The notes below the pieces were generated by a model. The model was given only the letters and a program-made list of their open reading frames with translations, was not told the origin of the DNA and ran no database searches. Positions 10,199 through 32,902 of a stretch of DNA of 64,000 bases are shown one piece after another. The DNA lies in assembly GCA_051859245.1 (NCBI GenBank), contig JBHYGA010000007.1, positions 1 through 64,000 on the forward strand, written 5' to 3'. The position numbers and the translations under genes are program-made. Each line of letters starts with the position of its first letter. Positions within the stretch are counted from its first letter, which is position 1. This DNA comes from Gemmatimonadaceae bacterium (GTDB lineage: Bacteria > Gemmatimonadota > Gemmatimonadetes > Gemmatimonadales > Gemmatimonadaceae).

Positions 10199-10228
10199 GT
10201 GTGTAGTCCTCTGTGTGTCGGTGTGTGA

Positions 10229-12271
10229 TTATCGGCGCTGAAACTCGGGCGCACCGATCGCGAGCCCAACGAGTTTCGGAAATCCGGTGAGTTCTGGCAG
10301 TGTCGCCGCGTTGGCACGACGGCGCTCCTGCCGTTCCTGTCGAATTTGTGCAGGCGGTGGTGTCATCATGTTGTTCGCCGCGCTCATGTCATCATCGTCG
10401 CGAAACAGGGAATCGGATCCAGCGGGCGCACGAGACAGCAGCGGATTATCACCGTTCGTCAGAATCGCCCGCGTATCGGCAGAGACATTGCCTCCAAAGA
10501 GCGCGCGCACCAATCCGTCCACTTGTTCATTCGGTGTTTTGTTCGCGAGTTCGCGTGCCGTTGTCCACTGTGCGAGACGCGCACCTGGCAAACGACCGGC
10601 ACCAACGGCGAGTCCAAAGTTCATGCGGTTGAGAATCGAGCCCGTATTGATCCATTCGTCGGCCATGTCGGGATAGCCATCGGGTGTGGCGCGACCGTAG
10701 ATCGGCTGCCCCATGCGGGCGATCAACTGCACGGTGCCCTGCGTGACATCGGGCTGACCACCGAGTGCGCGCGAGGCGCTGACCACGAGTTCAAACGGTG
10801 TCTTCACCTTGGCGCGATACGCGTCTTCGGCAAAAAACTCGTCGCTGGTGACGATCGTGCGCATCACTTCGCGCAGATCACCCTTGGTGCGTGTGAATGT
10901 GGCAGCTGCACGATCGATCAAACTCTCGGGTGGTTCGTCGCTCACGAACCGGCGCACAAGTTTTGTTGCAATGAAACGCGCGGTGCTTGGATGATTGGCC
11001 AGCAGATCGAGTACACGCTCGCCTTCATCCTGGCCTTTGCCAGCCGGAAATGCCTGACCAAGAATTGTCTTGGCTTCGGCGTCGTGCGTTTCCGGGCGGA
11101 AGACAAACTCACCGCCCTGAGCGGCTCCGCGGCTCAGTGTCCATCCGGTGAGCGCACGCGCGACTTCCATCACATCCTGTTGTGTATAGCCACCGTCCAC
11201 GCCAAGCGTGTGCAGTTCCATAAGCTCGCGTGCGTAGTTCTCGTTGATGCCGCGTGGACGACGCGGATTGGCCGCGAGCTGCGCCATGAACTCCTGCGCC
11301 TGCGTCAACGTCATGTCGCGCACGCGCTGATACTGTTCGGGCGGCAGCGCCATGATGCGCTGCTTCTGCTGCTCGGGCAGTCGGTCACGATCAATCAACT
11401 GTCCAACGGTGGTGCGATCCATCAATGCACGCTGACCCGCACGGATGTTGCGCTGCGGCGTGCGCGGCTGCACGAGCGTACGGCGTCCGCTGTCGGCGAC
11501 ACTCTGTGCCTGATCAAGGTACGTGAGCATGGCCGGGCTCTTGGCCACCGCACCGAGCAGCTCGCGGAAGTTGCCGAGCACGTGCGGACGAATGGCGGTG
11601 TGTTCAAACTCGGCCAGGTAGTATCGTGTTTGCTGTTTGCCAGCAAACACGTTGAAGTGATTGGCCCAGAAGTCGACCAGCACTTCCTGCAACTGTCGTT
11701 CACTGGCAACTGCGCGTCCGGTACGCGCAATAAACAACTCGGCGCTCGCCCGCTGTCCTTCACGCGCTTCCTCGCGCAGTTTCGCGGAATCTGCGGGCGA
11801 GAGCGTGAACGTACGCGCGGCGTCACCATTGGCGGGCGTCATGCCGGCACGTGGTGCGCCCATTTCGCGCTGCTGCTGCGCGAGCGCTTGTCGTACCTGT
11901 TGTCCTGGCGGCGGATACTTGGCCAGAAACTGCGCGCCCGTCATCGTGAGTGTCGGGAAACGTGTCAGCCACGTATCCATCGTGGCATCGTTGATTTTTT
12001 CGGGATAAAGTTGCTGCGTAATCCACGCGTCGACGCCCATGCTGCGCACCTTTTCCACGTCTCCCGGACGCGGACCGAAAGCGAGCCGGTTGAGCGCGTG
12101 CTGGACCTGCTGATCAGCGGTCTGTTCGCGGCCCGCCGGCGAGGCCGAGGCCATCTGCTGGGCGTGCAGCGGCGCCAGCGCGATCAGCGTGCTCATCGCG
12201 GTGGCGGCCATCGACGCGATTCGGAGGGTGGCCCAGCGCGAATCACGCGGGCGCATAACGGAAGATTTCAT
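10229..12271 (-). CDS. DUF1800 family protein
   Basis: HALNRLAFGPRPG, FWANHFNV, SPAMLTYLD, NENYARELMELHTLG; usual partner of DUF1501. Confidence 0.9.
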   Translation of the reverse strand: MKSSVMRPRDSRWATLRIASMAATAMSTLIALAPLHAQQMASASPAGREQTADQQVQHALNRLAFGPRPGDVEKVRSMGVDAWITQQLYPEKINDATMDTWLTRFPTLTMTGAQFLAKYPPPGQQVRQALAQQQREMGAPRAGMTPANGDAARTFTLSPADSAKLREEAREGQRASAELFIARTGRAVASERQLQEVLVDFWANHFNVFAGKQQTRYYLAEFEHTAIRPHVLGNFRELLGAVAKSPAMLTYLDQAQSVADSGRRTLVQPRTPQRNIRAGQRALMDRTTVGQLIDRDRLPEQQKQRIMALPPEQYQRVRDMTLTQAQEFMAQLAANPRRPRGINENYARELMELHTLGVDGGYTQQDVMEVARALTGWTLSRGAAQGGEFVFRPETHDAEAKTILGQAFPAGKGQDEGERVLDLLANHPSTARFIATKLVRRFVSDEPPESLIDRAAATFTRTKGDLREVMRTIVTSDEFFAEDAYRAKVKTPFELVVSASRALGGQPDVTQGTVQLIARMGQPIYGRATPDGYPDMADEWINTGSILNRMNFGLAVGAGRLPGARLAQWTTARELANKTPNEQVDGLVRALFGGNVSADTRAILTNGDNPLLSRAPAGSDSLFRDDDDMSAANNMMTPPPAQIRQERQERRRANAATLPELTGFPKLVGLAIGAPEFQRR

Positions 12272-12428
12272 GGTCAGGCTCGGGCAAGGAGGGCGAAGTC
12301 ATACTACCCCGGACACCTGAATGGACGTTCGCACCGCGGGCGCGTTAACGCACGTTCCGTTTCAAACGTTGTAACGATCCTTGCCGAGCGGCCTTGAGCT
12401 CGGCTGCGGTATCCGATTGCTTTGATCC

Positions 12429-16379: not shown

Positions 16380-17189
16380 TCATCGACCTTGCAGCAGCTC
16401 CGCGGTCTTTGTTAACTGCTTCGTTCCGATCATATCCACACCCGCGTCGAAGAGTTGTGTGTACACATTCGCGTCGAGCGGCACGTTGTGCGCGCGCACC
16501 AGCACGTGAGGCGCGGAGTCCTTGGCGGCGCGAATGGCTGCGAGCCAGCGCCGTCGCGCGCCAGCAGTCACCCACCACCGCCCGATGGTCTTGCCGTAGT
16601 CAATGCTGTGCAGTTGAACGCGCGCATTGAGCGGCGCCGGCACAGATGAACGCGAAATGCGCTCCTGCCAGCCCAGTAGACTATCGACACCTGTGTTATC
16701 GGTGAGCGTACGCGGATGCCAGCCCACCAGCACGATCATAAGCGTTGGTGACTGGGCAGCGGCTGATCGTGTGGCGCGAAGAAGCGCTTCGTGACGTGCA
16801 AGCACGGACAGCAGCGAGTCATACGCCGCGGGGGATCGCTCCTTCAGCTCAATCGCGAGCACGAATGACACGCGTGAGTGTGGCACGGGTGCGCAACGCG
16901 CGATGAGCTCTTGCAACGGCCGCAGATACAGGAACTCAAGCGTGCTGCCATTACGTGCGGATCGTTTGTCATGACCAACACGTAACGCACCATCAACAAG
17001 AAAAACATCGGCTTCGACGCCACGAAAGCCGAGTGAAACGGCATCAGCGAGCGGCCGCGCGTTTTCGTAGTCGTTGTGCGAGTACGCGGGCAGCTGGCCG
17101 CTCAGGCAATCGCTTTGCGCGGTGACGCGCGTGGAGATTGCCAGCAACAGCGGGGGAATCGTACACAACCGAAGAAGGAGCGTGCGCAC
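16380..17189 (-). CDS. Secreted PLC-like / GDPD-like phosphodiesterase
   Basis: Signal peptide, YSHNDY, GFRGVEADVFL, VGHD, TLEFLYL, IELK, GVDMIGT. Confidence 0.75.
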   Translation of the reverse strand: MRTLLLRLCTIPPLLLAISTRVTAQSDCLSGQLPAYSHNDYENARPLADAVSLGFRGVEADVFLVDGALRVGHDKRSARNGSTLEFLYLRPLQELIARCAPVPHSRVSFVLAIELKERSPAAYDSLLSVLARHEALLRATRSAAAQSPTLMIVLVGWHPRTLTDNTGVDSLLGWQERISRSSVPAPLNARVQLHSIDYGKTIGRWWVTAGARRRWLAAIRAAKDSAPHVLVRAHNVPLDANVYTQLFDAGVDMIGTKQLTKTAELLQGR

Positions 17190-17349
17190 GGCGGCTCACA
17201 AAAGCGTGGCGAATACTGACTCTCGCAACATACTGCGACGTACGCCACGCGTGCTGGACGTGGCGGGTTCATTCCGCCTGGAGCGCGCAGCGTTTGCGCT
17301 GCCGGTAAACCCGCCGCCGCATAGACCGCGAAACTCAGCGGCAATCGGG

Positions 17350-17450
17350 CCCACGGGTCGTTGAGCACGCCGTTCCCACCGTAATCCGGGGTGGTGCCGG
17401 CGCGAGCCCAGTACTCCCACTCCGCGAAGCGCCACTTCGTCATCGTCACC
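17350..17450 (-). pseudogene. Fragment of a formylglycine-generating enzyme (FGE-sulfatase) domain
   Basis: AEWEYWARAGTTPDYGGNGVLND matches the EAEWEYAARAGTT signature; no other FGE motifs around it. Confidence 0.55.
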
Positions 17451-17609
17451 GGTGGTGGACCCCAGTTAAAATCGCCACCCCTCGCCTTGGCGAACTGTTC
17501 GTCGCCAAAGCCGACGCCGGGTTCGAGCATAGGGAAGACCACGGTCACCGTTCAGTTGTTGGCCGTTGAGCTCATGGCGTGCGAAATTCCAGATTCCTGG
17601 GCTCCATGC

Positions 17610-17640
17610 TTGACACCGATCCGCCAGATCGGAGATTCGT
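17610..17640 (+). promoter_or_regulatory. Possible sigma70 promoter with palindromic spacer, upstream of the DyP/P450 operon
   Basis: TTGACA at 17610 followed by CCGATC-cgcca-GATCGG; -10 element weak. Confidence 0.3.
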
Positions 17641-17670
17641 ACAGCTGAGTTCGCCTACAAATCCCTCCCA

Positions 17671-18447
17671 ATGCCCAACCTTTCCGGCAAGTCGTACGCG
17701 TTCAACGCGATCACTCCGATCTCCACCGGGCGACTGTGGCGCGTGCGGCTCGCGTTTTTCCTGATCTGGCTCGCCTCATTCCGCGTGATTCAGAAGCTGC
17801 TGGGCTTCATTACGTTGGTGGCAGACCAGCAGCGTCTGATCGATCTGTCGTTTATTCACTTTGCGCGATGGACGGTAATTCGTCGGCGCAACTGGGCAAA
17901 CTTTGGCGGGCGACAGCCGTCCAGCTGGCCGCGGTACAACTACATTCTCTTCTGCTCCAACTTCAACGGTGACTGGGAGCAGTACATCGAGGCGTTTTCG
18001 GAAGTGGTGCCCGATGGCATGAACCTCATCTGGGGCAGCAACATCCGGTTTCCTGGCGCCAAGCCGATCACGCCGTTCCTGCAGTACATCCGTCAGAATC
18101 AACTGGATACCGACTACTACTACACGGCGTATCCTGGTGCGTCGGCCACTGACATTCGCGGCGCGCTGGACCTCTCCACGTCGCTCGATCAGTTCGCACG
18201 TACCTCGCTTGCGTTGCCGCCGGATCAGTTTCGTGCCGCATTCGAGCAGTTCCTGAGCGGCATGGCGCGCAATCTGTCCACGACCGGTCCCAATCCGTGG
18301 ATCGTGGATTCAGAGGAACCCATCGAAACGCCGCCATCACGCGGCTCGCTCGCGATGGATCGTAGTGTACGTGCCGTAAACACAGCGCCTTTCGCGTTCT
18401 CATCCGCGCCCGCACCGCGTTCTTCAACCGCAGGGAGCGCGTCGTGA
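17671..18447 (+). CDS. Uncharacterised DyP-associated protein A
   Basis: IHFARW, YILFCSNFNGDW, YYYTAYPGAS; colinear with the next ORF. Confidence 0.8.
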   Translation: MPNLSGKSYAFNAITPISTGRLWRVRLAFFLIWLASFRVIQKLLGFITLVADQQRLIDLSFIHFARWTVIRRRNWANFGGRQPSSWPRYNYILFCSNFNGDWEQYIEAFSEVVPDGMNLIWGSNIRFPGAKPITPFLQYIRQNQLDTDYYYTAYPGASATDIRGALDLSTSLDQFARTSLALPPDQFRAAFEQFLSGMARNLSTTGPNPWIVDSEEPIETPPSRGSLAMDRSVRAVNTAPFAFSSAPAPRSSTAGSAS

Positions 18448-19058
18448 GCAATCGGGTCAAACAAGCTTATGCGGTGACCGTGCTCGCGCCGATTCGCAAC
18501 GGACGCACCGAGGGCGTGCATCACGCATCGGCACTGCGCGCCCTGCTCGCCAATCTGCTCCAACACAGCGACAGTCCGTTCAGCGATCTGGGCATCGTGC
18601 ACACCGCGCGCCTGCTGGTGATCGACGATCTGATCAGCGAGTCATTGCCCGGCAAAGAAGATCACATCGCTTCCCGCTATCTGTTGATGGTGGCTGATGT
18701 GGACGGCGATTTGCGACAGTTTGCGCGTGCGTTGGTGCATGCGCACGCGGACTTCGCGAACGCCGTGTGGGGACACTGTGTGGGATGGCCAGGCGCGCTC
18801 GATGCGGACGCCGTGGTGCAGTACTTTCGAGACTGTGAAGTGAACACGGCGCTCTACTTCACGGGCTATCCTGGCGCGACGGCGGTTCAGGTGCTGCGCG
18901 CGCTTGCGCAACAGAAAGCATTCATCGAGTTCGCGAGTGAGACGCGTGGCCTGCCCTCTGGTGAGCTGCAGCAGGCGTTTCTGGAGTTTCGCGCGCGCAT
19001 GGAAAAAGCGCCAACACCCCTGCCGGGTGATCTGGTGTCACAGCGAGTGCTCACATGA
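18444..19058 (+). CDS. Uncharacterised DyP-associated protein B (paralog of A)
   Basis: VHTARLLVI, YLLMVADVDGD, WGHCVGWPG, YFTGYPGAT; GTGA overlap. Confidence 0.8.
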   Translation: MSNRVKQAYAVTVLAPIRNGRTEGVHHASALRALLANLLQHSDSPFSDLGIVHTARLLVIDDLISESLPGKEDHIASRYLLMVADVDGDLRQFARALVHAHADFANAVWGHCVGWPGALDADAVVQYFRDCEVNTALYFTGYPGATAVQVLRALAQQKAFIEFASETRGLPSGELQQAFLEFRARMEKAPTPLPGDLVSQRVLT

Positions 19059-20491
19059 CCATGTCCACCCGGCCGCTCGATCTCGCCGACATTCAGGGTA
19101 ATGTGCTGCGCGGCTATCGGTTTCCGGTTGCCACGCATCGCTTCTATCGCGTGCGCGATGTGCTGCGGGCGCGCGATACGATCCGTGCCCTTATTCCACA
19201 CGTGACGCACTCTGAAAACGAGCATCACGACGGTGGTCGCTGGTCAGACGGTGTCAAACCCCGCTCCGCGCTCAACATTGCCTTCACCTGGCGCGGACTC
19301 GAAGCGCTCGGCGTGCCGCAGCCGGCCCTCTGGGCGTTTCCTGAGGAGTTTCGCGCTGGCATGCAGGCACGCGCACGCGTGTTGGTGGATCTGGAGCGCA
19401 GTGCGCCAGAGCATTGGGAATCCATGTGGCGCGATGCGCAGGTGCACGTGGTGGTGATGTTGATGGCCAACAGTCCAACATCCCTTGAAGATCGCCTGCA
19501 CGAGCTGCAGGTGATTGTTCACACGCACGACGGCCTGGTTGAAGTCGGATCGCAGGACGCACAGATGGAATCGGTCGGCGGAAAAATGCGCGAGCACTTT
19601 GGGTATCTGGACGGCTTTGGCAATCCGGAAATCGCTGGTGCACCGGGCACGATGCGTCCCGGTCGCGGCAAACTCTCGGGCAAGAACGGTTGGGCGCCGC
19701 TCGCAGCCGGCGAGTTTGTGCTTGGGCAACGCAACGAAGCCGGCGAGGTGGCGCCCACGCCACAACCCTCCATGCTGTTTCGCAACGGCACGTTCATGGT
19801 GTATCGCAAACTGCACCAGAACGTGGCCACCTTTCGCCGATTTTTGCGCGAAGAAGGCGCCCGCTTTCCCGGTGGTCCGGAGTTGCTGGCGGCGAAACTC
19901 ATGGGGCGCTGGATGGATGGGACCCCTGTGATGCTCTCGCCCGATCATCCCGACGCGGAGCTGGCCGCCGACAACACGCGCAACACGGACTTTCGGTACG
20001 GCAGCGACCCGCACGGCGCGGTGTGTCCACTCGGGGCGCATGTGCGTCGCGCCAATCCACGTGATGCCATTGGATTTGATGGCGTGACGGTCAATCGCCG
20101 TCGCATGATTCGTCGTGGGCTGCCCTACGGTGCGTACACGCCGCCCGATTCGCCCGGTGACGATCGCACATCACAAGGCCTGTTGTTCATTGCGTTTGTG
20201 GCCAGTATTGCGGAACAGTTTGAGTTTGTGCAGCAACAGTGGATGAACTACGGCAATGACTTTGCGCTGGGCAACGACAAAGACACGGTCGTGGGGCTTC
20301 GCACGAGCGACCGGGATCGCCTGCTGATTCCGGGCGACCCGAAACGCCCGGACCGTCGCCCTACGCACTTTTGCTTTTCGCTCCCACAGTTCGTGGAAAC
20401 ACGCGGTGGTGACTACTTCTTTCTTCCCAGCCTCGCCGGACTCGGCGTGATTGCTGGCCCCTCTACGTCCAGCCCGTTGGAGACACGTTGA
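19055..20491 (+). CDS. Dyp-type (dye-decolorizing) heme peroxidase
   Basis: DIQGN, EHFGYLDG (GxxDG), NGTFMVYRKL, GAHVRRANPR (proximal His), RRGLPYG, QFEFVQ; no export signal. Confidence 0.92.
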   Translation: MTMSTRPLDLADIQGNVLRGYRFPVATHRFYRVRDVLRARDTIRALIPHVTHSENEHHDGGRWSDGVKPRSALNIAFTWRGLEALGVPQPALWAFPEEFRAGMQARARVLVDLERSAPEHWESMWRDAQVHVVVMLMANSPTSLEDRLHELQVIVHTHDGLVEVGSQDAQMESVGGKMREHFGYLDGFGNPEIAGAPGTMRPGRGKLSGKNGWAPLAAGEFVLGQRNEAGEVAPTPQPSMLFRNGTFMVYRKLHQNVATFRRFLREEGARFPGGPELLAAKLMGRWMDGTPVMLSPDHPDAELAADNTRNTDFRYGSDPHGAVCPLGAHVRRANPRDAIGFDGVTVNRRRMIRRGLPYGAYTPPDSPGDDRTSQGLLFIAFVASIAEQFEFVQQQWMNYGNDFALGNDKDTVVGLRTSDRDRLLIPGDPKRPDRRPTHFCFSLPQFVETRGGDYFFLPSLAGLGVIAGPSTSSPLETR

Positions 20492-21804
20492 TGTCACTGC
20501 TTGGATCTGTTGCCAAGACCATCGGAGATGGCGCGCGTTTGCTGCCGGCCGATCTGGGCGCGTTGTTTTCGCAGGCGAATACCACGTTGCACGACGATGT
20601 CCAGGACATGGTCGCCAATCTCAAGGCGTGGGCCCAGCAGAAGAATGCGGAACCCGTATTCCGACTGTTGCGATCGGTCGATCCGATTCTTGTTCTGAAA
20701 GACATCGCGATCGTCACACGATTTACGGATGTGCAGGAGGTGCTCAATCGCGATAGCATCTTTCATGTGCCTTACGCACAACACTTTGATCGACTGTGCG
20801 ACGGACACAACTTCTTTCTTGGCATGGAGAACACACCGGAGTACGCGCGCGACGTCGCCACCATGCGGCTAGCCATCAGGCGTGAAGACATTCCGCAAAT
20901 CGTGTCGCCGTTCGTGAAGCAGCGTGCCGAAGCGATCGTGAACGCGAGTGATGGGCGTATTGATGTGGTCACGGAACTGGCCGACATGGTTCCGTCGGCA
21001 CTTGTGGCGCAGTATCTGGGCTGTCCCTCGGGTCCAGGGCCCCACGATTTTGCGGAACAGGCGGCCGCGATTTCCGGGTTCTTGTTTCTCCCCTCTACTC
21101 CAGAGCTGGAGCAGAAGGCGCTGCGCGATGCGCAGCAGATGCGTAACTCGCTCCGCGCCACGATCGCGGCGCGCAAAGCAATGTCGGAGCCCGGAGACGA
21201 CGTGCTCGGCCGCCTGCTCTCCATGCAGGCGAACAACATGCCTGGTCTCTCGGACGAGGATGTCCTGAATAAACTGTTCGGTATTGTGGTGGCAATTATT
21301 CCCACGACATCGGGCGCTGTGGCGCGCGCACTGGATGAACTGTTTCGTCGACCTGACATGCTCGCCCGAGCGCAGGCTGCGGCCGCCGTCGACGACTATG
21401 TCACCATTCAGCAGTTTATACTCGAATCACTTCGGTTCAATCCGATTGGTCCGGGCGTGTTTCGTGTGGCGAGTGCGGACTACACGGTGGCGGCCGACAC
21501 GCGTCGTGCCACGACGATTCCGCAGGGCAAGCTGGTGTTGGTGGCACTTGAGTCCGCCATGATGGACGGCGATGTCATTGAAGATCCCAGGAGCTTTCGT
21601 CTGGATCGACCGGCCTGGCAGTATCTGCACTTTGGCTACGGACTTCACACGTGTTTCGGCCAGTATATCAATGCGGTCCAACTGCCGCGCATTCTCGGCG
21701 CCGTGCTGAAACAGAAGAATTTGCGACGCGCACCTGGCGTTGCCGGTACGTTGCAGCTGGATGGACCATTCCCTGCACATCTTGTCGTGGAGTTTGATGC
21801 TTGA
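20491..21804 (+). CDS. Cytochrome P450 with atypical I-helix
   Basis: ESLRF (ExxR), DPRSFRLDR, FGYGLHTCFG heme-thiolate motif; TGATG overlap with the DyP stop. Confidence 0.93.
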   Translation: MSLLGSVAKTIGDGARLLPADLGALFSQANTTLHDDVQDMVANLKAWAQQKNAEPVFRLLRSVDPILVLKDIAIVTRFTDVQEVLNRDSIFHVPYAQHFDRLCDGHNFFLGMENTPEYARDVATMRLAIRREDIPQIVSPFVKQRAEAIVNASDGRIDVVTELADMVPSALVAQYLGCPSGPGPHDFAEQAAAISGFLFLPSTPELEQKALRDAQQMRNSLRATIAARKAMSEPGDDVLGRLLSMQANNMPGLSDEDVLNKLFGIVVAIIPTTSGAVARALDELFRRPDMLARAQAAAAVDDYVTIQQFILESLRFNPIGPGVFRVASADYTVAADTRRATTIPQGKLVLVALESAMMDGDVIEDPRSFRLDRPAWQYLHFGYGLHTCFGQYINAVQLPRILGAVLKQKNLRRAPGVAGTLQLDGPFPAHLVVEFDA

Positions 21805-24800
21805 TCGATTGCGATCGCTGCCCCTTGATACGGGCAGCGACTCTCCATCATCCCCTCGCTTTGATGTCGTTCGTCCGCTAGGTGTTGGTGGAATGGGTGT
21901 GGTGTATGAAGCAGTCGACCACGCGATGAATGCGCGGGTCGCGGTGAAGCTGTTGCCGGAAAGCAACGCCCGTGGTGTACTCATGTTCAAGCGTGAGTTC
22001 CGGTCACTCGCGCGCATTGTGCACCCGCACCTTGTTGCACTGTACGAGCTGATTGCGCACGCGGGTGAGTGGTGCTTCACCATGGAACTCGTCGACGGCG
22101 TTGACTTTGAAACGTGGGTGCGGCCTCAAGGCGTGGTGGATGTGCCGCGCGTATTGCGCGCCACGCGCCAGCTGGTCGAAGGTTTGCGATATTTGCATGC
22201 CAAGGGTGTAATCCACCGGGATGTGAAGCCATCGAACGTGCTTGTGACAAGCGATGGGCAAGTAAAGATTCTTGACTTCGGTCTCGCCGAAGATGTGGAT
22301 TCGCGCAACAACTCCGACGACAGTAGTTGGGGAACGCTCGTCTTCATGTCGCCGGAACAGCTGTCCGGGGAGCCGGTATCGCCCGAAAGCGATTTCTACG
22401 CGGTCGGCGCGATGCTTGTGGAGGTGCTGGCGGGCGAGCCACCGTTCGTGGGCAATCCGATGCGCGTGCTCGCCGACAAGATGTTGCAACGCGTTCCCGC
22501 GCTTGACGCGATTCCCGATACGGTGCCCGCGGCGCTGGTCTCACTCGTTCGCGAGCTGCTCGATCCGACCGCTTCCGAGCGACCTGGCGCCGACGAAATC
22601 CTGCGTCAGCTTGCGGCGATGACGCCAAGTACGGCGGGCGTGGTTGATGTGGCGGAGCGACCCACGTCAACACGAGCGCGCGTTTCGCCGGTGATTGGAC
22701 GTGCCACCGAGTTCGCAGCGTTACAGGATGCACTCGACGACGTCCACGCCGGAGCAACCGTTGTACTCGGCGCGCGTGGCCGCTCGGGCAGTGGCAAGAG
22801 TGTGCTGATCTCGCACTTCCTGAAGCAGCTACGCGGCAATGATGTGCTGTTGCTCACGGGCCGTTGTTATGAGCAGGAGTCGGTGCCCTACAAAGGGATT
22901 GATGCCGTGGTGGATTCCCTCACGCGGCACTTGCACGGTCTTGATCGCGAGACGCGAGAACAGTTGTTGCCCGATGGCATGGGATTGCTGGCGCAGCTGT
23001 TCCCGGTAATGCAGCGCGTTGACGGCATGGAAGAGCTGGCGCGTACGGCGCCGGTAATTCCCGATCGCCGACAGCGTCGCCGAATAGCGTTCGCCGCCTT
23101 CCGTGAGCTGATGAGTCGACTTGCGACGCAGTACACGGTTGTGCTGCACATTGACGACCTGCATTGGGGCGACACGGATAGTGCGGCGTTGCTGCTCGAC
23201 ATGCTGCAGCCGCCGGATGCGCCGCCACTGTTGTTGCTCCTGTCGTACCGAAGTGAGTATGAGGACAGCAGCGCCTGCCTGCGCATGCTGCTGCAGTCGG
23301 AGTCGCTGGCTGCCTGTCGCCGCTACCTTGATGTCGGTCCGCTTGCAGAGCGTGACGCGACGGAACTTGCCTTGGTACTACTGGGAGACGATCCAGCCGC
23401 TGAAGAACACGCCGCGCTCATTGCGCACGAAGCCAAGGGAAGTCCGTACTTCATTGCGGAGCTGGCGCGCGATGTGCGCGAGCGTTCGAGTGAGGGATCG
23501 ATTGCGACCGGCACAGGTTTTTCCCTCGACGATGTGCTGCGACAGCGCGTCTCACGACTTCCGGTTGAAGATCGCGATCTGATTGACCTGCTGAGTGTGT
23601 CTGCCCGGCCGTTGCGTTTGCGTCACGCGCGCGATGCCATGGGTTCCGGTGCGTTCACGCCGCAACTGATTGCCCGGTTGCGGGCGCAGAATCTGGTGCG
23701 CAGCACGGGGCCGTCGCAGGACGATGAGCTTGAGCTGTATCACGATCGTGTGCGCGAATCCGTGTTTGCGCGCATGCCTGATCCCCGTCAGCAGCAGTGT
23801 CACGCGCGGCTTGCGCACACGCTCGCGCCGGACACACGCATTGATGCGGAAACGGTGGCCGTGCATTTCGAGCGTGCTGGCGAGCGCGAACAGGCCGGTG
23901 CATTCTACGCGCGCGCAGCGGTTGGCGCGGCCTCGGCACTGGCGTTCGAACGCGCGGTCAAACTGTACCGACTCGCCATCGAGCTGCGACCGGCTCACGG
24001 CGAGAACGTCGCCGCGTTGCAGGTGCAACTTGGGCATGCGCTCGCGAATGCGGGCCGCAGCGGCGAGTCGGGAGACGCATTTCTCACGGCCGCGAAGTCG
24101 GCTGAGGACGGATCTGAGAAAACGGATCTGCTGCGACTCGCCGCCACCCAGCTTTGCATTGCCGGTCGCGTTGATGAAGGACGCGCAATTTTTCGTGACG
24201 CGATGCGTCGTGCCGGCCTCTCGCTGCCAAACGCAGGCATGGGAATTCTGCCGTCGCTGCTGTTTCGGCGCGCCCGTGTTGAACTCAGCAATCTGGAAGC
24301 TGCGCGCGACGCCAATGGTTCGGGCTCGTCAACGCAGTTGTCGCGAATTGACATGCTGTGGTCAGCCAGTACGTCGCTTTCAGGGGTTGATCATGTTGGC
24401 GTGGCGTCGCTGCAAGCGAAGGCGCTGCTCATCGCACTGCGCGCCCGTGAACCACAGCGGTTGGCGCGCTGCCTGAGCTGGGAGGCGGTGCTGCGTGCCA
24501 GTGCAGGGGTTACGAACGAGCGCACAGTTGAGCGCCTGCTCACCGTTGCGGACGAGCTGGCCAATCGCATCGGTGAGCCACACGCCCAGGGCATGGTGGG
24601 GCTGGCGCGCGCGTGGTCGGCATTCCTGCAAGGGAACTTTCCGAAGGCGCTGCAGCATGCGGTGCCGGCTGTTCGCGTCTTTCGTGAGAACTGCACCGGC
24701 GTTGCGTGGGAGCTCGTGATGAGTGAAACGGCGATTTCGTGGTCGCACGTACACATCGGAGATACCGAAGGCGCTCGGCAAAGCATTCGCGAGCACTACG

Positions 24801-25480
24801 GTGATGGTGTTGGGCGTGGCAATACGGTGCTCATCACCAACTTTTTGTCGGTCGTGCAGCCCTTTGTTGCGCTGGTCGAAGACGACGCCGATGCCTCCGC
24901 CGAGTATCTTCGCGAAGCGCTCGCCATGTGGCCGCATGCGGGTTATCACGTACAACACGTCTCGTTGCTGTGGAGCTGGTCGCGTCTCCACTTGTATCGC
25001 GGTGAAGCAGAGGCGTCACTGGCGCGATACGAGCGCGAGTGGTCACCAATGCGCAATGCGTTGCATTTGCGCGGGCAGCTGTCCCGGGTAACGCAGCTTG
25101 ATTCGCGCGGTCGCAGTGCGCTCACGGTTGCGATCGGTCGCAGCAACGCCTCGGGTGACCTGGTAAAGCGAGCCAAGCGCGACGCTGAGGCACTGCGACG
25201 TGAGCAAGCGACGTTTGTGCGACCGTATGCTGACCGAATGTTCGGCTTGCTGGCGCGACACGAGCAGAACGAAGTCGAGGCCGCGCGTCTTTTCAAATCA
25301 GCGTATGCGGGATTCACGCGATCCGGTGCGTTGCTTGATGCGGCCGTGGCGCAGCGCTGTTACGGCGAGACGATCGGGGGCGATGAGGGACAGCAGCATG
25401 TTGCCGCGGCGAACAACGCCATGCACGCGCTCGGCGTGAAGAACACCGATGCGATCACTCGTATGTTGAGTGTACGCTGA
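21797..25480 (+). CDS. Ser/Thr protein kinase - AAA/STAND-like ATPase - TPR-like protein
   Basis: GVGGMG, VAVK, HRDVKPSN, DFG, GTLVFMSPE; Walker A GRSGSGKS, Walker B LHIDDLHW; helical repeat C-terminus. Confidence 0.92.
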   Translation: MLDRLRSLPLDTGSDSPSSPRFDVVRPLGVGGMGVVYEAVDHAMNARVAVKLLPESNARGVLMFKREFRSLARIVHPHLVALYELIAHAGEWCFTMELVDGVDFETWVRPQGVVDVPRVLRATRQLVEGLRYLHAKGVIHRDVKPSNVLVTSDGQVKILDFGLAEDVDSRNNSDDSSWGTLVFMSPEQLSGEPVSPESDFYAVGAMLVEVLAGEPPFVGNPMRVLADKMLQRVPALDAIPDTVPAALVSLVRELLDPTASERPGADEILRQLAAMTPSTAGVVDVAERPTSTRARVSPVIGRATEFAALQDALDDVHAGATVVLGARGRSGSGKSVLISHFLKQLRGNDVLLLTGRCYEQESVPYKGIDAVVDSLTRHLHGLDRETREQLLPDGMGLLAQLFPVMQRVDGMEELARTAPVIPDRRQRRRIAFAAFRELMSRLATQYTVVLHIDDLHWGDTDSAALLLDMLQPPDAPPLLLLLSYRSEYEDSSACLRMLLQSESLAACRRYLDVGPLAERDATELALVLLGDDPAAEEHAALIAHEAKGSPYFIAELARDVRERSSEGSIATGTGFSLDDVLRQRVSRLPVEDRDLIDLLSVSARPLRLRHARDAMGSGAFTPQLIARLRAQNLVRSTGPSQDDELELYHDRVRESVFARMPDPRQQQCHARLAHTLAPDTRIDAETVAVHFERAGEREQAGAFYARAAVGAASALAFERAVKLYRLAIELRPAHGENVAALQVQLGHALANAGRSGESGDAFLTAAKSAEDGSEKTDLLRLAATQLCIAGRVDEGRAIFRDAMRRAGLSLPNAGMGILPSLLFRRARVELSNLEAARDANGSGSSTQLSRIDMLWSASTSLSGVDHVGVASLQAKALLIALRAREPQRLARCLSWEAVLRASAGVTNERTVERLLTVADELANRIGEPHAQGMVGLARAWSAFLQGNFPKALQHAVPAVRVFRENCTGVAWELVMSETAISWSHVHIGDTEGARQSIREHYGDGVGRGNTVLITNFLSVVQPFVALVEDDADASAEYLREALAMWPHAGYHVQHVSLLWSWSRLHLYRGEAEASLARYEREWSPMRNALHLRGQLSRVTQLDSRGRSALTVAIGRSNASGDLVKRAKRDAEALRREQATFVRPYADRMFGLLARHEQNEVEAARLFKSAYAGFTRSGALLDAAVAQRCYGETIGGDEGQQHVAAANNAMHALGVKNTDAITRMLSVR

Positions 25481-25501
25481 GCGCTGTCTCCGGGCCGCCC
25501 A

Positions 25502-25942
25502 TCATGACGGTGAACTGCGCAGCGCGCCGCGAATCAGCGTGCGACCCTGGGGGCCCAGTGCGCCGGCCGTGTAGAGAGCGAACAGGAGGTTCAGGATCGA
25601 CAAAACGAGCAGCGGCCAGTGACGCTCGGGCAAGTGAAATGCAAACCACGCGGCGTAGAATGCGGCACCCATCAGGCGACCGAGAATACCACCAATCACG
25701 ATGCCGATGTGTCGCACCGGATCAACCGCGCCGATGAGATAGAAGCACGGCAGAACAAACAGAAATACCGATGAATAATACGGCCAAAAATGCTGCGTTG
25801 CGCTGACCGGCGTACCGAGCCACTGCGCCGTTGCTTCGGGCGCGAACACCAGCGGCAGGCCGCCGGTCATGTCAACGAGAGCGCCAAGCACAAGCGCAAT
25901 GCGCATGGGACGCACGGGGAAAGGTGTCGGTTCGGCTGACAC
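25502..25942 (-). CDS. Hypothetical 4-TM membrane protein
   Basis: Hydrophobic segments, FYLIGAVDPVRH; convergent on the kinase. Confidence 0.7.
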   Translation of the reverse strand: MSAEPTPFPVRPMRIALVLGALVDMTGGLPLVFAPEATAQWLGTPVSATQHFWPYYSSVFLFVLPCFYLIGAVDPVRHIGIVIGGILGRLMGAAFYAAWFAFHLPERHWPLLVLSILNLLFALYTAGALGPQGRTLIRGALRSSPS

Positions 25943-26107
25943 AGCGCCTCAGATTCTGGAATGAAAAGCGGGCGTACGGATCGCGCTAAGTATGCGGCTT
26001 GTGTGACCGTCTCGCCACACGGCGTGCGACGAACGCGTCTGGTAGCGATTTCGTCACGGGTAAGTGCCAGCGCTATCCGGCCTCTGGGCGGCGCCTACAC
26101 TTGAGGC

Positions 26108-27601
26108 ATGCCTACCCATTTTACGTTTCCGCGTCGGTCACGATACCTGGTCGCACTGACCGTGCTGGGAGGAGCCGGCGCCGCCTGCTCCGTATTCACT
26201 CCGCGAGGCGCCGAACTCGCACGCGAAGCCGACGGCCGCGAGTGGCTCGCCGGTGATCATCACATTCACAGCGAGTTCAGCACTGGATACGCGTTGCCAG
26301 TGGAAGGTAGTTCCGAGCCACCGGCTCCGATACTTGGCGCCGATGGACGTTACGCCATTTCCATGAACGCCAGCAAAGCGCGTGAGCATGGATTGCGGTG
26401 GATGGTGTCGACCGACCACGGTGGGCCCAATCATTCGAAGCTGAACTATGAGCAGGCGTATCCAGCGCTGCTCCAGTCGCGCGAAGCCGTGCCTGAGGTG
26501 GTGCAGTTCTATGGTATGGAGTTTGACACGCCGGGCGCCGATCACAGCAGCATGATCATGCCAAACTCTCCGGTCGAGCGGCAGATGCTGCGCGACATTG
26601 AGTCCCGCTTCTCCAAACGCGATGCGTATCCGCGCGATACGATGCGTGAGACCGAGCCCAAAATGCTCGAAGCGCTCACGTACATGCGCGCCTTGCCGAA
26701 CCAGCCCGTTGTGATCGCCAATCATCCATCGCGCTCAGCGCGTGGGGTACGGCAATACGGTCAGGATGCGCCCAAAGAGTTTCGTGATTGGAACGACACG
26801 GCGCCCCGCGTTGCGATTGGCATGGAAGGTGCGCCCGGTCACCAGGCGAGTGCGCTGAATCGTGATGGGTCCGTTGACTCAACAGGAGCACGGGGCGGCT
26901 ACAGCAGCTCACCGACGCTTGGTGGTTTTGATCAGATGACCGCAATCCTTGGCGGCTTCTGGGACTCCATGCTCGGTGAAGGACGCAAATGGTTCATCAC
27001 GTCCACGTCTGATTCCCACCGCAACTATCGCGAGGGCGGAAGCGATTTCTGGCCTGGCGAATATTCGAAGACGTACGTGCATGCGCGGGCGACCCACGCT
27101 GACATTCTCGACGGCATTCGGAACGGCCGCGTGTTTGTGACCACGGGTGACCTGATCAACGCGCTTGATGTCACCGTGAAGCGTGTGGGTCAGGGATCGG
27201 CCGTGGCATCGATTGGTGGGACCCTGTCGCTTGGTGGCACGCAAGACATTGAGGTGACCATTCGTGTTCGTGATCCGCTGGCCGCGAATCATCGGGGCGA
27301 CACGCCAAGTGTGGTGCGTGTGGATCTGATCATGGGTGACGTGGTTGGGCCGTCGGCGGATCGCACGCTGGATCGCAACCCGACCACACGTGTTGTGCAG
27401 CGCTTTTCACCGAACCAGTGGACCGTAGACGGCGAGTATCTCGTGATGTCGCATGTGGTGCGCGACGTGCAGCGGAACAGCTATCTGCGTGTGCGTGGTA
27501 CCAGCACCAACGAGCTTGAACCATCGCCCGATCCGCTGGGTGAGAACATGTGGAAGGATCTGTGGTTCTATTCCAATCCGATCTGGATCAACGTGCGCTG
27601 A
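26108..27601 (+). CDS. PHP-domain phosphoesterase (exported, likely lipoprotein)
   Basis: GDHHIHS, STDH, ANHP, SDSH, WFYSNPI; N-terminal GAAC lipobox. Confidence 0.82.
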   Translation: MPTHFTFPRRSRYLVALTVLGGAGAACSVFTPRGAELAREADGREWLAGDHHIHSEFSTGYALPVEGSSEPPAPILGADGRYAISMNASKAREHGLRWMVSTDHGGPNHSKLNYEQAYPALLQSREAVPEVVQFYGMEFDTPGADHSSMIMPNSPVERQMLRDIESRFSKRDAYPRDTMRETEPKMLEALTYMRALPNQPVVIANHPSRSARGVRQYGQDAPKEFRDWNDTAPRVAIGMEGAPGHQASALNRDGSVDSTGARGGYSSSPTLGGFDQMTAILGGFWDSMLGEGRKWFITSTSDSHRNYREGGSDFWPGEYSKTYVHARATHADILDGIRNGRVFVTTGDLINALDVTVKRVGQGSAVASIGGTLSLGGTQDIEVTIRVRDPLAANHRGDTPSVVRVDLIMGDVVGPSADRTLDRNPTTRVVQRFSPNQWTVDGEYLVMSHVVRDVQRNSYLRVRGTSTNELEPSPDPLGENMWKDLWFYSNPIWINVR

Positions 27602-32193: not shown

Positions 32194-32862
32194 TCAATCC
32201 AGGCGAATGAATCCTCGTCGAAGTGCGGTGGTCACCGCCTCTGTGCGATCGTGTACATCAAGTTTCTGCAGAATGTTCTTGAGGTGAACCTTCACGGTGC
32301 CTTCGGTTCGCCCGATACGCGTCGCGACTTCTGCGTTGCTGAGACCATCAGCAACCAGTCGCAAGACTTCCAACTCGCGAGGCGTGAGACCAACACGCGG
32401 CGTATGTTCGGCTAAACGCGCGGCCACTGGCGCTGGAATGCCGCGCAGTCCGCGATGCACCGTGCGCACAACGCCGAGCAAGTCGGTGCGCAGCATGTCC
32501 TTGAGCAGATAACCACGCGCTCCGGCGGAAAGCGCTCGATGAATGTCTTCGTCACCGTCGTACGTGGTGAGGACAATGATGCGGGCGTTGGGATCCTCCG
32601 CAAGGATCGCGCGCGTGGCCGCCAGTCCGTCCATGACCGGCATCCGCAGGTCCATCAGCACGATGTCGGGTCTCAAGCGTGAGTAGGCTTCGATCGCCTC
32701 CTCGCCATTCGACGCTTCGGCGACAACTTGCAGGTCGCTCTCCGCGCGCAGCACGGCGGACAGTCCGTCGCGGATCAACGGATGGTCATCGGCGGTCAGC
32801 ACCGTAATGGAAGCAGCCGAAGGATCGGTCACGATTGAATGATATTCCCAGGTCTCGGACAC
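32194..32862 (-). CDS. NarL/LuxR family response regulator; start may be 32832
   Basis: ADDHPL, LMDLRMP, GYLLK, LTPRELEVL HTH. Confidence 0.93.
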   Translation of the reverse strand: MSETWEYHSIVTDPSAASITVLTADDHPLIRDGLSAVLRAESDLQVVAEASNGEEAIEAYSRLRPDIVLMDLRMPVMDGLAATRAILAEDPNARIIVLTTYDGDEDIHRALSAGARGYLLKDMLRTDLLGVVRTVHRGLRGIPAPVAARLAEHTPRVGLTPRELEVLRLVADGLSNAEVATRIGRTEGTVKVHLKNILQKLDVHDRTEAVTTALRRGFIRLD

Positions 32863-32902
32863 GGAATCCCTATTTCTAGGTATTCGCCTTGGCTGCGTTG
32901 GA

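Follow-up and report, generated by a model that had tools for sequence, protein, structure and literature searches.

What kind of machinery is encoded when a dye-decolorizing peroxidase (DyP), a cytochrome P450 and a Ser/Thr kinase share one gene cluster with two proteins of no named family? The question is raised by a locus in a 64,000-nucleotide stretch of DNA from a Gemmatimonadaceae bacterium (contig JBHYGA010000007.1), which is referred to here as the window. The original prediction, made from the sequence, was of a coupled operon that makes or turns over an oxidised small molecule or lipid and is read or controlled by the kinase. In this study, we examined the gene products, their conservation across genomes and the predicted complex of the peroxidase with the two unnamed proteins, A and B.

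Gene layout and products of the locus

Table 1. Features of the locus in window coordinates
Feature	Position	Strand	Remarks
Leader/intergenic region 5' of gene A	17549..17670	+	After divergent minus-strand ORF; presumed promoter region
Gene A	17671-18447	+	258 aa
Gene B	18444-19058	+	204 aa
DyP gene	19055-20491	+	478 aa
P450 gene	20488/20491-21804	+	438/437 aa by start chosen
Kinase gene	21740/21797-25480	+	Ser/Thr kinase-AAA_16 fusion
Small hydrophobic multi-pass protein, 146 aa	25502-25942	-	Outside the coordinates of the original prediction

The five predicted co-oriented, overlapping genes (17671-25480, forward strand; Table 1) were borne out by the ORF list, the translations and the junction letters. 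Start and stop codons overlap at all four junctions, which were read in the DNA as claimed: GTGA at 18444 (A/B), ATGA at 19055 (B/DyP), TGATG at 20489-20493 (DyP/P450) and ATGCTTGA at 21797-21804, an 8-nt overlap (P450/kinase). The ATG at 21797 fits the N-termini of kinase orthologues. The region 5' of gene A gave no match in Rfam; a single weak sigma-70-like match lies farther upstream (17443-17472), in a count not above shuffles. The cluster had been noted to lack a ferredoxin or P450 reductase, and 0 of 22 flanking ORFs (4303-38144) matched such a family, several of them having no match at all. Many ordinary bacterial P450 genes likewise lack an adjacent ferredoxin. Export signals had also been called absent, in agreement with a rough check, a Kyte-Doolittle scan in which no hydrophobic stretch was seen at the N-termini. 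The hydropathy scan found no strongly hydrophobic (TM-like) stretch in the window proteins; A has one internal hydrophobic helix or segment at residues 29-47 (Kyte-Doolittle).

A and B had been described as paralogs without a family, and both points held. BLASTP aligned them at 30% identity over 143 aa (E 6e-23), and their family alignments matched in hhalign with probability 100 (E 1e-46). Neither protein matched a Pfam or NCBIfam family, and a PDB sequence search gave no match. Relatives of A number 1337 at E<=1e-3, every named one being 'hypothetical'. AF2 models were obtained with pLDDT 71 for A and 82 for B; the model of A suggests a ferredoxin-like alpha+beta core followed by a disordered C-terminal tail (207-258). 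Foldseek matches were weak, comprising dimeric ferredoxin-like, TcmI and ABM proteins for A (E 0.03-0.2, probability up to 0.97), and YgiN (probability 0.97, E 0.085) and the ABM-like WhiE-ORFI (probability 0.96, E 0.071) for B. The best relevant matches were 1tuw (E 0.049, probability 0.97), 3bb5 (E 0.039) and 1r6y (E 0.085, probability 0.97); nothing was found at E<=0.001, and the ferredoxin-like fold assignment is weak. Structurally, A and B come closest, though weakly, to dimeric alpha+beta barrel proteins (ABM, TcmI, Dabb, EthD-like). In that group, small ferredoxin-like domains pair with one another, and several members act without a cofactor on hydrophobic ring compounds. No sequence similarity between A or B and these proteins was detectable. 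A and B have about double their length, with additional helices, and, unlike them, exist as an obligate pair of paralogs linked to a haem peroxidase. In an alignment of 28 sequences, B has conserved H27, H74, H111, C112 and C131, which are absent from A; this His/Cys set is a possible metal, haem or redox site.

Judged by its sequence, the third product is a DyP-type haem peroxidase of the long class V (C/D-like) form. It matched DyP_N (60.1 bits, cut-off 27.5) and Dyp_perox_C (30.1 bits, cut-off 20) in Pfam and TIGR01413 (109.2 bits, cut-off 100.5) in NCBIfam. The catalytic Asp186 in GYLDG (GxxDG), the proximal His329 in GAHVRR and the distal Arg354 in RRGLPYG are invariant in 30 of 30 aligned DyP homologs. 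The protein is nearest to the D-type DyPs of fungi and the class C DyPs of bacteria, and its best solved relative is DrDyP of Deinococcus radiodurans (8re3, E 4e-80). DrDyP (DR_A0145; PDB 8RE2, 8RE3; PMC10820274) is a cytoplasmic long DyP like that of the window, and differs from it at the fifth residue of GxxDG, which is Met. According to the passages of that report available to us, DrDyP is inactive at neutral pH with a six-coordinate low-spin haem, and what switches it on was posed as a question (PMC10820274). DR_A0145 adjoins DR_A0146, a catalase-like gene, whose product was described, in the part of the source at hand, as a non-canonical haem protein without catalase activity (PMC6300522).

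Conservation and predicted assembly of A, B and DyP

A genome scan for A gave at least 576 tblastn-confirmed relatives among at least 599 pattern matches, and the best 80 were examined. These 80 have the highest scores among at least 576 loci and were not drawn at random, so more distant members of the A family may break the triad. The 80 loci comprise Acidobacteriota (50), Gemmatimonadota (12), Alpha- (10), Gamma- (4) and Betaproteobacteria (1), Planctomycetota (2) and Eremiobacterota (1), so that A-B-DyP spans at least five phyla among the 80 loci: Acidobacteriota, Gemmatimonadota, Pseudomonadota, Planctomycetota and Eremiobacterota. Cultured hosts of the module include Granulicella aggregans (L027) and Acidicapsa dinghuensis (L022). 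Within these best 80 of at least 576, wherever there was room, A was followed by B (79 of 79 loci) and A-B by DyP (78 of 78, the DyP of L039 being on the opposite strand). In all-against-all clustering, every other neighbour family was confined to 13 or fewer of the 80 loci. The same gene order is met again in other genomes and is more than a chance arrangement. H2O2-forming oxidase families lie directly 3' of the module in three loci out of about 70: a GMC oxidoreductase gene is directly downstream in L010 and L023, and a gene for a glyoxal/galactose-oxidase-like protein overlaps the P450 stop in L051.

Natural fusions were also found. A B-profile search of 1.84 billion representatives returned 2920 matches at E<=1e-3, that is, about 2900 clusters at 50% identity. 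Tandem A-B-type proteins made up 43 of 150 among the matches listed, and DyP domains were present in 5 of 12 long matches scanned with Pfam; three of the proteins are A-B-DyP fusions (P0277, P0285, P0384) and two are B-DyP fusions (P0317, P0360).

The complex of A(1-205), B and DyP was predicted with DyP as the partner. The median score, which expresses the confidence of the model and is no measurement of binding, was 0.80, compared to 0.00 for the best of three controls. Among solved complexes, 116 of 157 attain the calibration mark for this score, as do 2 of 215 mismatched pairs; the mark is a rough guide here since our own alignments were used. The runs had at least 91% of contacts in common, with partner pLDDT of at least 87. 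The predicted interface of A comprises residues 55-61, 99-112, 131-134, 158-164 and 189-205, and A is predicted to be the main contact partner of DyP. The conserved order, the fusions of A, B and DyP and the score of 0.80 against 0.00 suggest that the core is one enzyme of three proteins, a DyP and two ferredoxin-like subunits of an undescribed kind. The claim of one coupled unit in which A, B, DyP and P450 go together was likewise upheld by conserved order, natural fusions and the complex prediction, which passed.

We consider it probable that the product of the locus as a whole is a haem peroxidase machine of several subunits, located in the cytoplasm or at the membrane periphery and consisting of an A-B-DyP core, a frequent P450 and, in Gemmatimonadota, a kinase and a membrane protein. 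From the model and the natural fusions, we infer that A and B (about 200 aa, ferredoxin-like and of an undescribed family) dock on the C-terminal domain of the class V DyP. The three proteins would then act as one enzyme, in which peroxide is used to oxidise a small molecule, probably a hydrophobic one. A link to the membrane is hinted at by two long-form A homologs (P0073, P0082), each with two strongly hydrophobic inserted segments, and by P0156, which is laid out as DyP, a multi-TM region and a catalase-like domain (27 bits, cut-off 25). EfeUOB and the encapsulin-packaged DyPs similarly combine a DyP with dedicated partners from the same operon. Those partners, a permease and a cupredoxin protein or a capsid-like shell, are unrelated to A and B, and the DyPs concerned belong to classes A and B and, unlike the window DyP, bear a Tat signal or a tail that targets them to the encapsulin. 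The physiological substrates and roles of DyPs are a long-standing question, on which a large long-DyP branch with two dedicated undescribed partners bears. Our results suggest that long DyPs of this branch have so far been studied without their natural subunits, and A and B form a new protein family for database curation.

The P450 and the lineage-specific kinase

The P450 matched Pfam p450 (PF00067) with 61.3 bits (cut-off 22.8); its weak relatives are natural-product tailoring enzymes. The haem-thiolate loop FGYGLHTCFG (C389) and the ExxR motif ESLR (E313, R316) are invariant in 22 of 22 sequences. The I-helix reads AIIPTT and departs from the canonical (A/G)Gx(D/E)T, Pro272 standing in place of the acid of the acid-alcohol pair. 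It aligns with AGHETT or AAHDTT of 3wvs, 3r9b and 5it1, with Pro272 opposite E/D, and both P272 and T273, the retained I-helix Thr, are invariant in all 22 sequences. The distal Asn of plant AOS, PGIS and LDS is replaced by Thr273 at the aligned position; the review sections available describe some self-sufficient AOS with Thr or a non-polar residue there (PMC13049297). The change from acid to Pro is compatible with peroxide-driven chemistry that needs no redox partner. Lacking the acid required for normal O2 activation, the P450 would most likely be ferredoxin-free and may act on peroxide or on the already oxidised product of the DyP step. A P450 was present in 27 of 70 evaluable loci and is an optional but frequent add-on to the A-B-DyP core. 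As a fourth component it is either fused or translationally coupled to DyP: PF00067 was carried by 76 of 120 long DyP relatives listed, in the order DyP then P450 and often fused to the DyP C-terminus.

The joining of a class V DyP to a P450 has been described before, as subclass V4 in the 2022 survey 'Unexpected diversity of dye-decolorizing peroxidases' (PMC9719856). In the sections of that survey available to us, V4 is listed as unexplored with no characterised member, and its two domains are proposed either to scavenge H2O2 together or to carry out a synthesis in two steps like that of Ppo (PMC9719856). In the V4 description given there, the P450 lies at the N-terminus and the DyP at the C-terminus, with transmembrane regions as well, whereas the window and its 76 fused relatives have DyP then P450; the same description makes no mention of A/B partners or a kinase (PMC9719856). 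Fungal DOX-CYP enzymes (linoleate diol synthases, Ppo) also have two haem domains per protein or operon in the accounts available (PMC13049297, PMC4420034). As described there, the P450 of DOX-CYP needs no redox partner because the peroxide made by its partner gets rearranged (PMC13049297), and one LDS is regulated via a protein kinase A pathway (PMC4420034). The DOX-CYP partner is, in contrast, a cyclooxygenase-like dioxygenase with a fold unrelated to DyP, and A/B-type subunits do not occur there. We found no paper on A/B subunits or on the kinase link in the literature. The many natural DyP-P450 fusions documented here may be self-sufficient two-haem biocatalysts.

The fifth gene encodes a kinase with Pkinase (179.5 bits) and AAA_16 (74.3 bits, cut-off 32.6) domains in Pfam. 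Its translation contains the Gly loop GVGGMGVVY, VAVK, HRDVKPSN, DFG and SPE, and the NTPase part has Walker A GRSGSGKS and Walker B hhhhDD as VVLHIDDLHW. A helical region of about 650 aa follows the STAND-type NTPase (AAA_16). The TPR repeats proposed for this region were not confirmed: the C-terminal 687 aa gave TPR_1 only (E 0.036, 14.3 bits, cut-off 27.8). Bacterial STAND Ser/Thr kinases such as mycobacterial PknK, with a kinase, an AAA_16/MalT-like NTPase and helical repeats, share this layout, in which a Hanks-type kinase at the N-terminus precedes the AAA_16 NTPase with its Walker A and B motifs and the C-terminus is long and helical. We know of no member whose gene belongs to a DyP or P450 operon.

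The kinase had been expected to stay beside DyP/P450 homologs, and this was largely contradicted, as it was kept in 4 of 24 evaluable P450-bearing loci, all from Gemmatimonadota. Among further P450 loci, those of Gemmatimonadota have an orthologue 3' of the P450 in 4 of 5 cases and those from elsewhere in 0 of 19; the module is followed by one in 0 of 43 evaluable loci without a P450. These results indicate that the kinase is a lineage-specific addition outside the conserved system. Full-length orthologues (39.5-42% identity) were found in L005, L006 and L014 and a fragment at the end of L001, in loci sharing a mere 45-55% identity in A. Two of them (L001, L005) have an extra Pkinase gene abutting A on the upstream side. 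L008, a Gemmatimonadales locus with a fused DyP-P450, has no kinase in the 6.5 kb available downstream. Because Ser/Thr kinases abound in the phyla concerned, the adjacency could partly be chance. The small hydrophobic protein encoded after the kinase gene is homologous to an ORF between P450 and kinase in L001, L005 and L014 (tblastn 28-31% identity, E 2e-8 to 2e-9), which makes its gene a sixth part of the Gemmatimonadota version. Because the small membrane gene separates P450 and kinase in those three loci, co-transcription of the two is not obligatory. The small protein has no Pfam match and its relatives fall only in 'hypothetical protein' clusters. The kinase is a candidate lineage-specific regulator. 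The Gemmatimonadota module would have gained it together with the small membrane protein, and the two most likely act through phosphorylation, either as regulators of the module or as reporters of its substrate or product.

Possible functions of the module

By analogy, the module might make or turn over an oxidised, oxylipin-like lipid at the membrane, with DyP and P450 acting like the fungal dioxygenase-P450 fusions and the STAND kinase sensing the product in signalling or defence. The Ppo analogy has already been raised in the available part of the V4 survey (PMC9719856), and the DyP-P450 fusions do mirror the two-haem DOX-CYP design with its self-sufficient CYP, as outlined in the review sections at hand (PMC13049297). 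The I-helix acid is missing from all 22 P450 sequences, membrane hints occur in A homologs and P0156, and a few loci have lipid- or acid-related neighbours (an AMP-binding ligase in L025, L028, L034 and L045; GDPD in L020). Catalase-related haem proteins and CYP74 enzymes share the same hydroperoxide chemistry, and in sister architectures a catalase-like domain replaces P450 or DyP. It passes the cut-off of 25 bits in P0156, stays below it at 20.6-21.9 bits in P0245, P0387 and P0396, and is apparent by eye with no Pfam match in P0248; DR_A0145, the closest solved DyP, has a catalase-like neighbour. DyPs are, to our knowledge, consumers of peroxide and not makers of hydroperoxides, however, and no lipoxygenase or fatty-acid dioxygenase is present in the window cluster or recurrent near the module. 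Of the evaluable loci, 20 of the 24 that bear a P450 and all 43 that lack one have no kinase, and the P450 has Thr and not the Asn described for plant AOS or PGIS in the available sections (PMC13049297). The predicted defence role was not supported either: A, B, DyP and P450 matched 0 PADLOC-DB v2 families, and the kinase matched only through its kinase domain, residues 35-310 (mad6, PD-T4-6, Stk2). We regard the oxylipin-like reading as quite improbable. Iron or haem homeostasis, or protection from oxidative stress, would follow if A and B were IsdG-like haem binders, degraders or chaperones and DyP a deferrochelatase-type enzyme or peroxide scavenger. The ABM-like fold is common to IsdG-type haem oxygenases, weak Foldseek matches point to such a fold in A and B, and the conserved His/Cys residues of B and the catalase-like fusion partners are in keeping with it. 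In the parts of the literature at hand, the family members EfeB and YfeX are proposed deferrochelatases (PMC6300522), although the claim for YfeX is disputed (PMC3215433), and H2O2 scavenging is proposed for DyP with P450 (PMC9719856). Neither IsdG nor MhuD was among the Foldseek matches listed, haem or iron transport genes were not recurrent in the clustering of the 80 loci, and a dedicated P450 and STAND kinase would be left unexplained. Such a function seems very improbable indeed.

Intracellular catabolism or detoxification of aromatic, quinone-type or lignin-derived compounds is another reading, in which A and B would be cofactor-free ABM-/TcmI-like enzymes or binders, DyP would oxidise with H2O2 and the P450 would hydroxylate or couple. 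The nearest folds, all weak matches, are those of ABM monooxygenases, of YgiN, a quinol monooxygenase, and of two polyketide cyclases, TcmI and WhiE-ORFI, and D-type fungal and class C bacterial DyPs are oxidisers of dyes and phenolics. The GMC and glyoxal-oxidase-like neighbours recall the peroxide supply of fungal ligninolytic systems, the P450 is weakly related to natural-product tailoring enzymes, and the hosts are chiefly soil Acidobacteriota and Gemmatimonadota. The fold matches are, however, all non-significant; lignin is extracellular, yet export signals are absent by the hydropathy scan, and clustering of the 80 loci revealed no conserved ring-cleavage, transporter or regulator genes alongside the module. 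A, B and DyP are coupled in strict stoichiometry and also occur fused, which fits one enzyme better than a pathway. We consider this reading unlikely, and favour the multi-subunit haem peroxidase machine.

A more specific form of that machine can be drawn, to which we give a slim chance. The A/B pair would sit beside W396, a conserved surface Trp of DyP, and the haem would oxidise a substrate held in an A/B pocket at the His/Cys site of B. The redox-partner-free P450, fused or coupled, would then rearrange the oxidised product to a lipid-like signal read by the Gemmatimonadota STAND kinase and its small membrane partner, and the whole would be a peroxide-fuelled radical enzyme of a new kind. 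If true, bacteria would have, assembled from unrelated parts, their own counterpart of the oxylipin signalling of eukaryotes. The presence of a STAND kinase in one lineage may reveal what the system responds to. In one relative (P0247), an nSTAND1 NTPase is fused to a full A domain within one protein.

The five-gene block and its conserved core

Five ORFs lie on the + strand at 17671-25480 of the window, which has a G+C content of ~61%. The ORF listing and translations confirmed the original prediction of five co-oriented genes, and the junction DNA matched its four overlaps exactly, as shown in the table. In Pfam and NCBIfam searches, a DyP-type peroxidase was recognized in gene 3 and a cytochrome P450 in gene 4; gene 5 encodes a Ser/Thr kinase with an AAA_16 NTPase C-terminal to it. 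The first two genes, here called A and B, matched no family in either database. They had been described as two unknown paralogs, and their relationship was verified by BLASTP (E 6e-23) and profile-profile comparison (probability 100, E 1e-46). The absence of a ferredoxin or P450 reductase also held among the 22 ORFs from 4303 to 38144. The TPR label of the kinase C-terminus was not upheld, as the TPR match (E 0.036) was under the cut-off. The claim that no protein has an export signal was examined by hydropathy scan only, in which a single hydrophobic segment showed up inside A (residues 29-47). No Rfam match at E<=1 was obtained for window 17000-26200. Predicted promoters (2 vs 1.8 in shuffles) and terminators (12 vs 9.6) did not exceed the shuffled background and argued neither for nor against a single transcript.

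Features of the five-gene block and its borders
Feature	Position	Strand	Sequence or remark
Gene A	17671-18447	+	
Gene B	18444-19058	+	
DyP gene	19055-20491	+	
P450 gene	20491-21804	+	
Kinase gene	21797-25480	+	
Junction A/B	18444	+	GTGA, read from DNA
Junction B/DyP	19055	+	ATGA, read from DNA
Junction DyP/P450	20489-20493	+	TGATG, read from DNA
Junction P450/kinase	21797-21804	+	ATGCTTGA, read from DNA
ORF bounding the block upstream	17102-17548	-	
Small membrane protein, bounding the block downstream	25502-25942	-	146 aa, hydrophobic, directly after kinase; homolog of a 165-aa ORF of related loci (E 2e-8 to 2e-9)

In a 90%-clustered protein set, 1337 proteins were related to A at E<=1e-3, and every named one is annotated as hypothetical. 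A pattern scan for A in one genome per species gave at least 599 matches, and tblastn confirmed at least 576 of them. The 80 best-scoring loci were analyzed; being the closest of at least 576, they are not a random sample. Judged by record title, they came from Acidobacteriota (50), Gemmatimonadota (12), Alphaproteobacteria (10), Gammaproteobacteria (4), Planctomycetota (2), Betaproteobacteria (1), and Eremiobacterota (1). All ORFs of these loci were translated, and the five proteins of the window and profiles of A and B served as queries against them. Among these best 80, a B-type gene followed A in 79/79 loci with room (L026 had none), and DyP lay downstream in 78/78 (L003 and L026 had no room). 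All-against-all BLAST clustering of their 3977 ORFs showed no family in more than 13 loci beyond A, B, DyP, P450, and overlapping-frame shadows.

B in Alphaproteobacteria and Burkholderia was longer and diverged, and was detected by profile alone. Two other descriptions of the alphaproteobacterial loci were rejected. A B-like N-terminal extension of DyP found no support when the B profile was compared by hhalign with the in-frame upstream stretch of locus L028 (probability 0.05). B had also appeared to be missing or fused; the profile search showed that in all of them it is a gene of its own, carrying an insertion and read in a different frame. Some single loci departed from the common layout. 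The DyP of L039 (11240-12829, -; Gemmatimonadota) lies directly after A and B on the opposite strand, the sole inverted case of the 78. In L008, the A ORF continues in frame into part of DyP. DyP is broken into 2-3 adjacent ORFs in the MAG loci L018, L041, L044, and L078, which could reflect frameshifts, pseudogenes, or assembly errors.

Predicted association of A and B with DyP

We searched 1.84 billion representatives with the B profile and obtained 2920 matches at E<=1e-3 (1621 at E<=1e-10). Tandem A-B proteins, taken as those of 320 aa or more in which two or more stretches matched, made up 43 of the 150 matches listed. Twelve long B matches were scanned with Pfam. Three were A-B-DyP fusions (P0277, P0285, and P0384) and two were B-DyP fusions (P0317 and P0360); P0387 and P0396 carried a catalase-like stretch at 20.6-20.8 bits, under the cut-off of 25, and the remaining five showed nothing further.

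The complex of A(1-205), B, and DyP was then modeled. Scored on DyP, the prediction gave a median of 0.80, and the best of three controls gave 0.00. This level was reached by 116/157 solved complexes and 2/215 mismatched pairs, a calibration that is only rough here because custom alignments were supplied. The runs had at least 91% of contacts in common, with partner pLDDT of at least 87. These models support binding of A and B to DyP. Most of the predicted contacts link two stretches of A (158-164 and 189-205) to the C-terminal domain of DyP (319-326, 400-408, and 420-441). In the alignment with D-type fungal DyPs, W396 of DyP falls on their FIQxSW Trp, the surface radical site of those enzymes; the predicted A contacts start four residues past W396.

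The distal Asp186 (GYLDG), proximal His329, and distal Arg354 of DyP were invariant in 30/30 homologs. Among solved structures, DrDyP of Deinococcus radiodurans (8re3, E 4e-80) came closest, with D-type fungal DyPs next. A review states that the DrDyP gene, DR_A0145, adjoins the catalase-like DR_A0146, described as being without catalase activity (PMC6300522). Catalase-like domains were also found in fusion proteins. P0156, one of the DyP relatives of at least 838 aa, consists of DyP, about seven hydrophobic segments (multi-TM), and a catalase-like domain (27 bits vs cut-off 25). P0245 is an A-B-catalase-like fusion at 21.9 bits, under the same cut-off, and P0248 shows this layout by eye only, with no Pfam match. 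Taken with the P450 described below and with DR_A0146, these fusions show that DyPs of this branch recurrently have another haem protein, a non-canonical one, as partner. Since A and B are also fused to distant catalase-like domains, they pair with haem domains of different kinds.

AF2 models of A (pLDDT 71) and B (pLDDT 82) showed a beta-alpha-beta-beta-alpha core with extra helices. Neither model had a Foldseek match in the PDB at E<=0.001, and neither sequence matched a solved structure at E<=1. The most consistent weak Foldseek matches were ferredoxin-like dimeric alpha+beta barrels (probability up to 0.97, E 0.04-0.1), including TcmI cyclase, ABM monooxygenases, YgiN, and WhiE-ORFI. On these models, A and B likely belong to this fold class, and we treat their family as new. 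The alignment showed that H27, H74, H111, C112, and C131 of B are invariant or near-invariant and absent from A; they could form a putative metal, haem, or redox site. Three A homologs of ~300 aa (P0073, P0082, and P0095) carry a ~100-residue insertion after the first strand, at the place where window A has its single hydrophobic helix. The insertion contains a pair of segments of strong hydrophobicity, with KD19 reaching 2.4 in P0073 and P0082 and the pair of P0095 seen in the alignment alone; judged from its sequence, it looks like a transmembrane hairpin. Such segments hint at membrane association.

Distribution of the P450 and the kinase

Both ExxR and the Cys loop are preserved in the P450. 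The I-helix sequence is AIIPTT, vs AGxETT in canonical P450s; Pro272 aligned to the acid in three solved P450s, and the Pro-Thr pair was invariant in 22/22 family members. The I-helix acid of P450s relays protons for O2 activation. Its loss would be compatible with peroxide-driven or substrate-peroxide chemistry. Among the best 80 loci, P450 followed DyP in 27 of the 70 evaluable: Gemmatimonadota 6/9, Acidobacteriota 13/44, Alphaproteobacteria 4/9, Gammaproteobacteria 1/4, Betaproteobacteria 1/1, Planctomycetota 1/2, and Eremiobacterota 1/1. DyP and P450 formed a single ORF in L001, L004, L005, L006, L008, and L012, and occupied overlapping frames in L014. DyP relatives of at least 838 aa numbered 254 at E<=0.001, and a P450 domain was present in 76 of the 120 listed. 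In both L010 (1212-3137) and L023 (2-1921), an ORF of ~640 aa lies upstream of A and resembles P450 over a short stretch (query residues ~78-181, E 3e-12 to 5e-13).

Every Hanks motif is present in the kinase translation, along with both Walker motifs (A and B). Full-length orthologues lay downstream of P450 in L005, L006, and L014 (39.5-42% identity over ~1200 aa), and L001 holds the start of one at its contig end. The kinase was thus found in 4/24 evaluable P450-bearing loci (at least 800 bp after P450). By lineage, it was present in 4/5 such loci of Gemmatimonadota and 0/19 of other phyla, and in none of the 43 evaluable loci without P450. L008, also from Gemmatimonadota, has a TPR protein in place of the kinase. 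L054 has, directly downstream, a simple kinase-domain gene that is broken into two ORFs, and an additional separate Pkinase gene abuts A upstream in L001 and L005.

In L001, L005, and L014, a hydrophobic ORF of 165 aa stands between the P450 and kinase genes; its window homolog belongs to no known family in Pfam or Protein Atlas. Both this homolog and B fell into Protein Atlas clusters of 'hypothetical protein' only. A relation to the TM region of P0156 was rejected, with no BLASTP match below E 0.99. Because of this distribution among evaluable loci, we regard kinase and membrane protein as a conserved add-on of one Gemmatimonadota sub-lineage. A identity among the kinase-bearing loci is just 45-55%, and retention of the add-on at this distance argues for a functional link to the module in that sub-lineage only, not for the whole system. 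In P0247, a metagenomic protein of 726 aa, an nSTAND1/AAA_16 NTPase is fused to a full A domain, which spans residues 531-723 and is 37% identical to window A. This protein hints independently at a connection between STAND and A; it comes from a single cluster and could be a gene-calling artefact.

Interpretation and neighboring genes

These findings are probably best explained by a three-subunit DyP holoenzyme with an optional P450 and a lineage-specific STAND-kinase regulator. A, B, and DyP would form one three-subunit holoenzyme using peroxide. The P450 would be an optional component, probably free of a redox partner, and the STAND kinase may act as a regulator in the Gemmatimonadota lineage of the window. 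The substrate is possibly hydrophobic or membrane-associated. Intracellular oxidation of aromatic or quinone compounds is an unlikely alternative role.

The original prediction had pointed to an oxylipin-like signaling or defence system, a reading to which we give only a small chance. Its defence part found no support in PADLOC, which matched the generic kinase domain only. The fungal analogy behind it has a precedent: a 2022 phylogenetic survey describes DyP subclass V4 with a P450 domain, terms it unexplored, and proposes H2O2 scavenging or Ppo-like synthesis as its role (PMC9719856). The pairing of DyP with P450 and the fungal analogy are thus already in print there, though uncharacterised. 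The V4 layout is N-terminal P450, transmembrane regions, and C-terminal DyP, whereas DyP precedes P450 here. Haem or peroxide handling is, in our judgment, very improbable. Our literature search, thin on subscription journals, retrieved DyP with P450 from this survey only, no paper on A or B proteins, and neither a DyP with two small partner subunits nor a kinase-linked DyP operon. The enzyme families are already known; what is new is the obligate pair of subunits, whose family had not been described, the many fusions with DyP ahead of P450, and the STAND-kinase module of one lineage.

Pfam was also run on co-oriented downstream ORFs near the module (49 proteins of 118 candidates, mainly + strand). 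GMC oxidoreductases lay directly after DyP in two methanotroph loci (L010 6205-8010 and L023 5024-6778), and a 1343-aa glyoxal/galactose-oxidase-like protein overlaps the P450 stop in L051 (13909-17937, Acidobacteriota). Both are H2O2-forming oxidase families. AMP-binding ligases adjoin the module in L025, L028, L034, and L045, a GDPD occurs in L020, and GST-like proteins occur in L043 and L072. Since few loci are concerned, these neighbors are hints only; most genes around the module are unrelated housekeeping genes. Elsewhere in the window, a DUF1501/DUF1800 gene pair lies at 8921-12271 (-), and a 683-aa ORF without family at 10346-12397 (+) is probably an opposite-strand shadow of the DUF1800 gene. 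At 32194-36007, ~7 kb from the module, a LuxR-type response regulator (-) and a hybrid sensor kinase of 1034 aa (+) are divergently oriented, and the latter carries Reg_prop/Y_Y_Y propeller domains.
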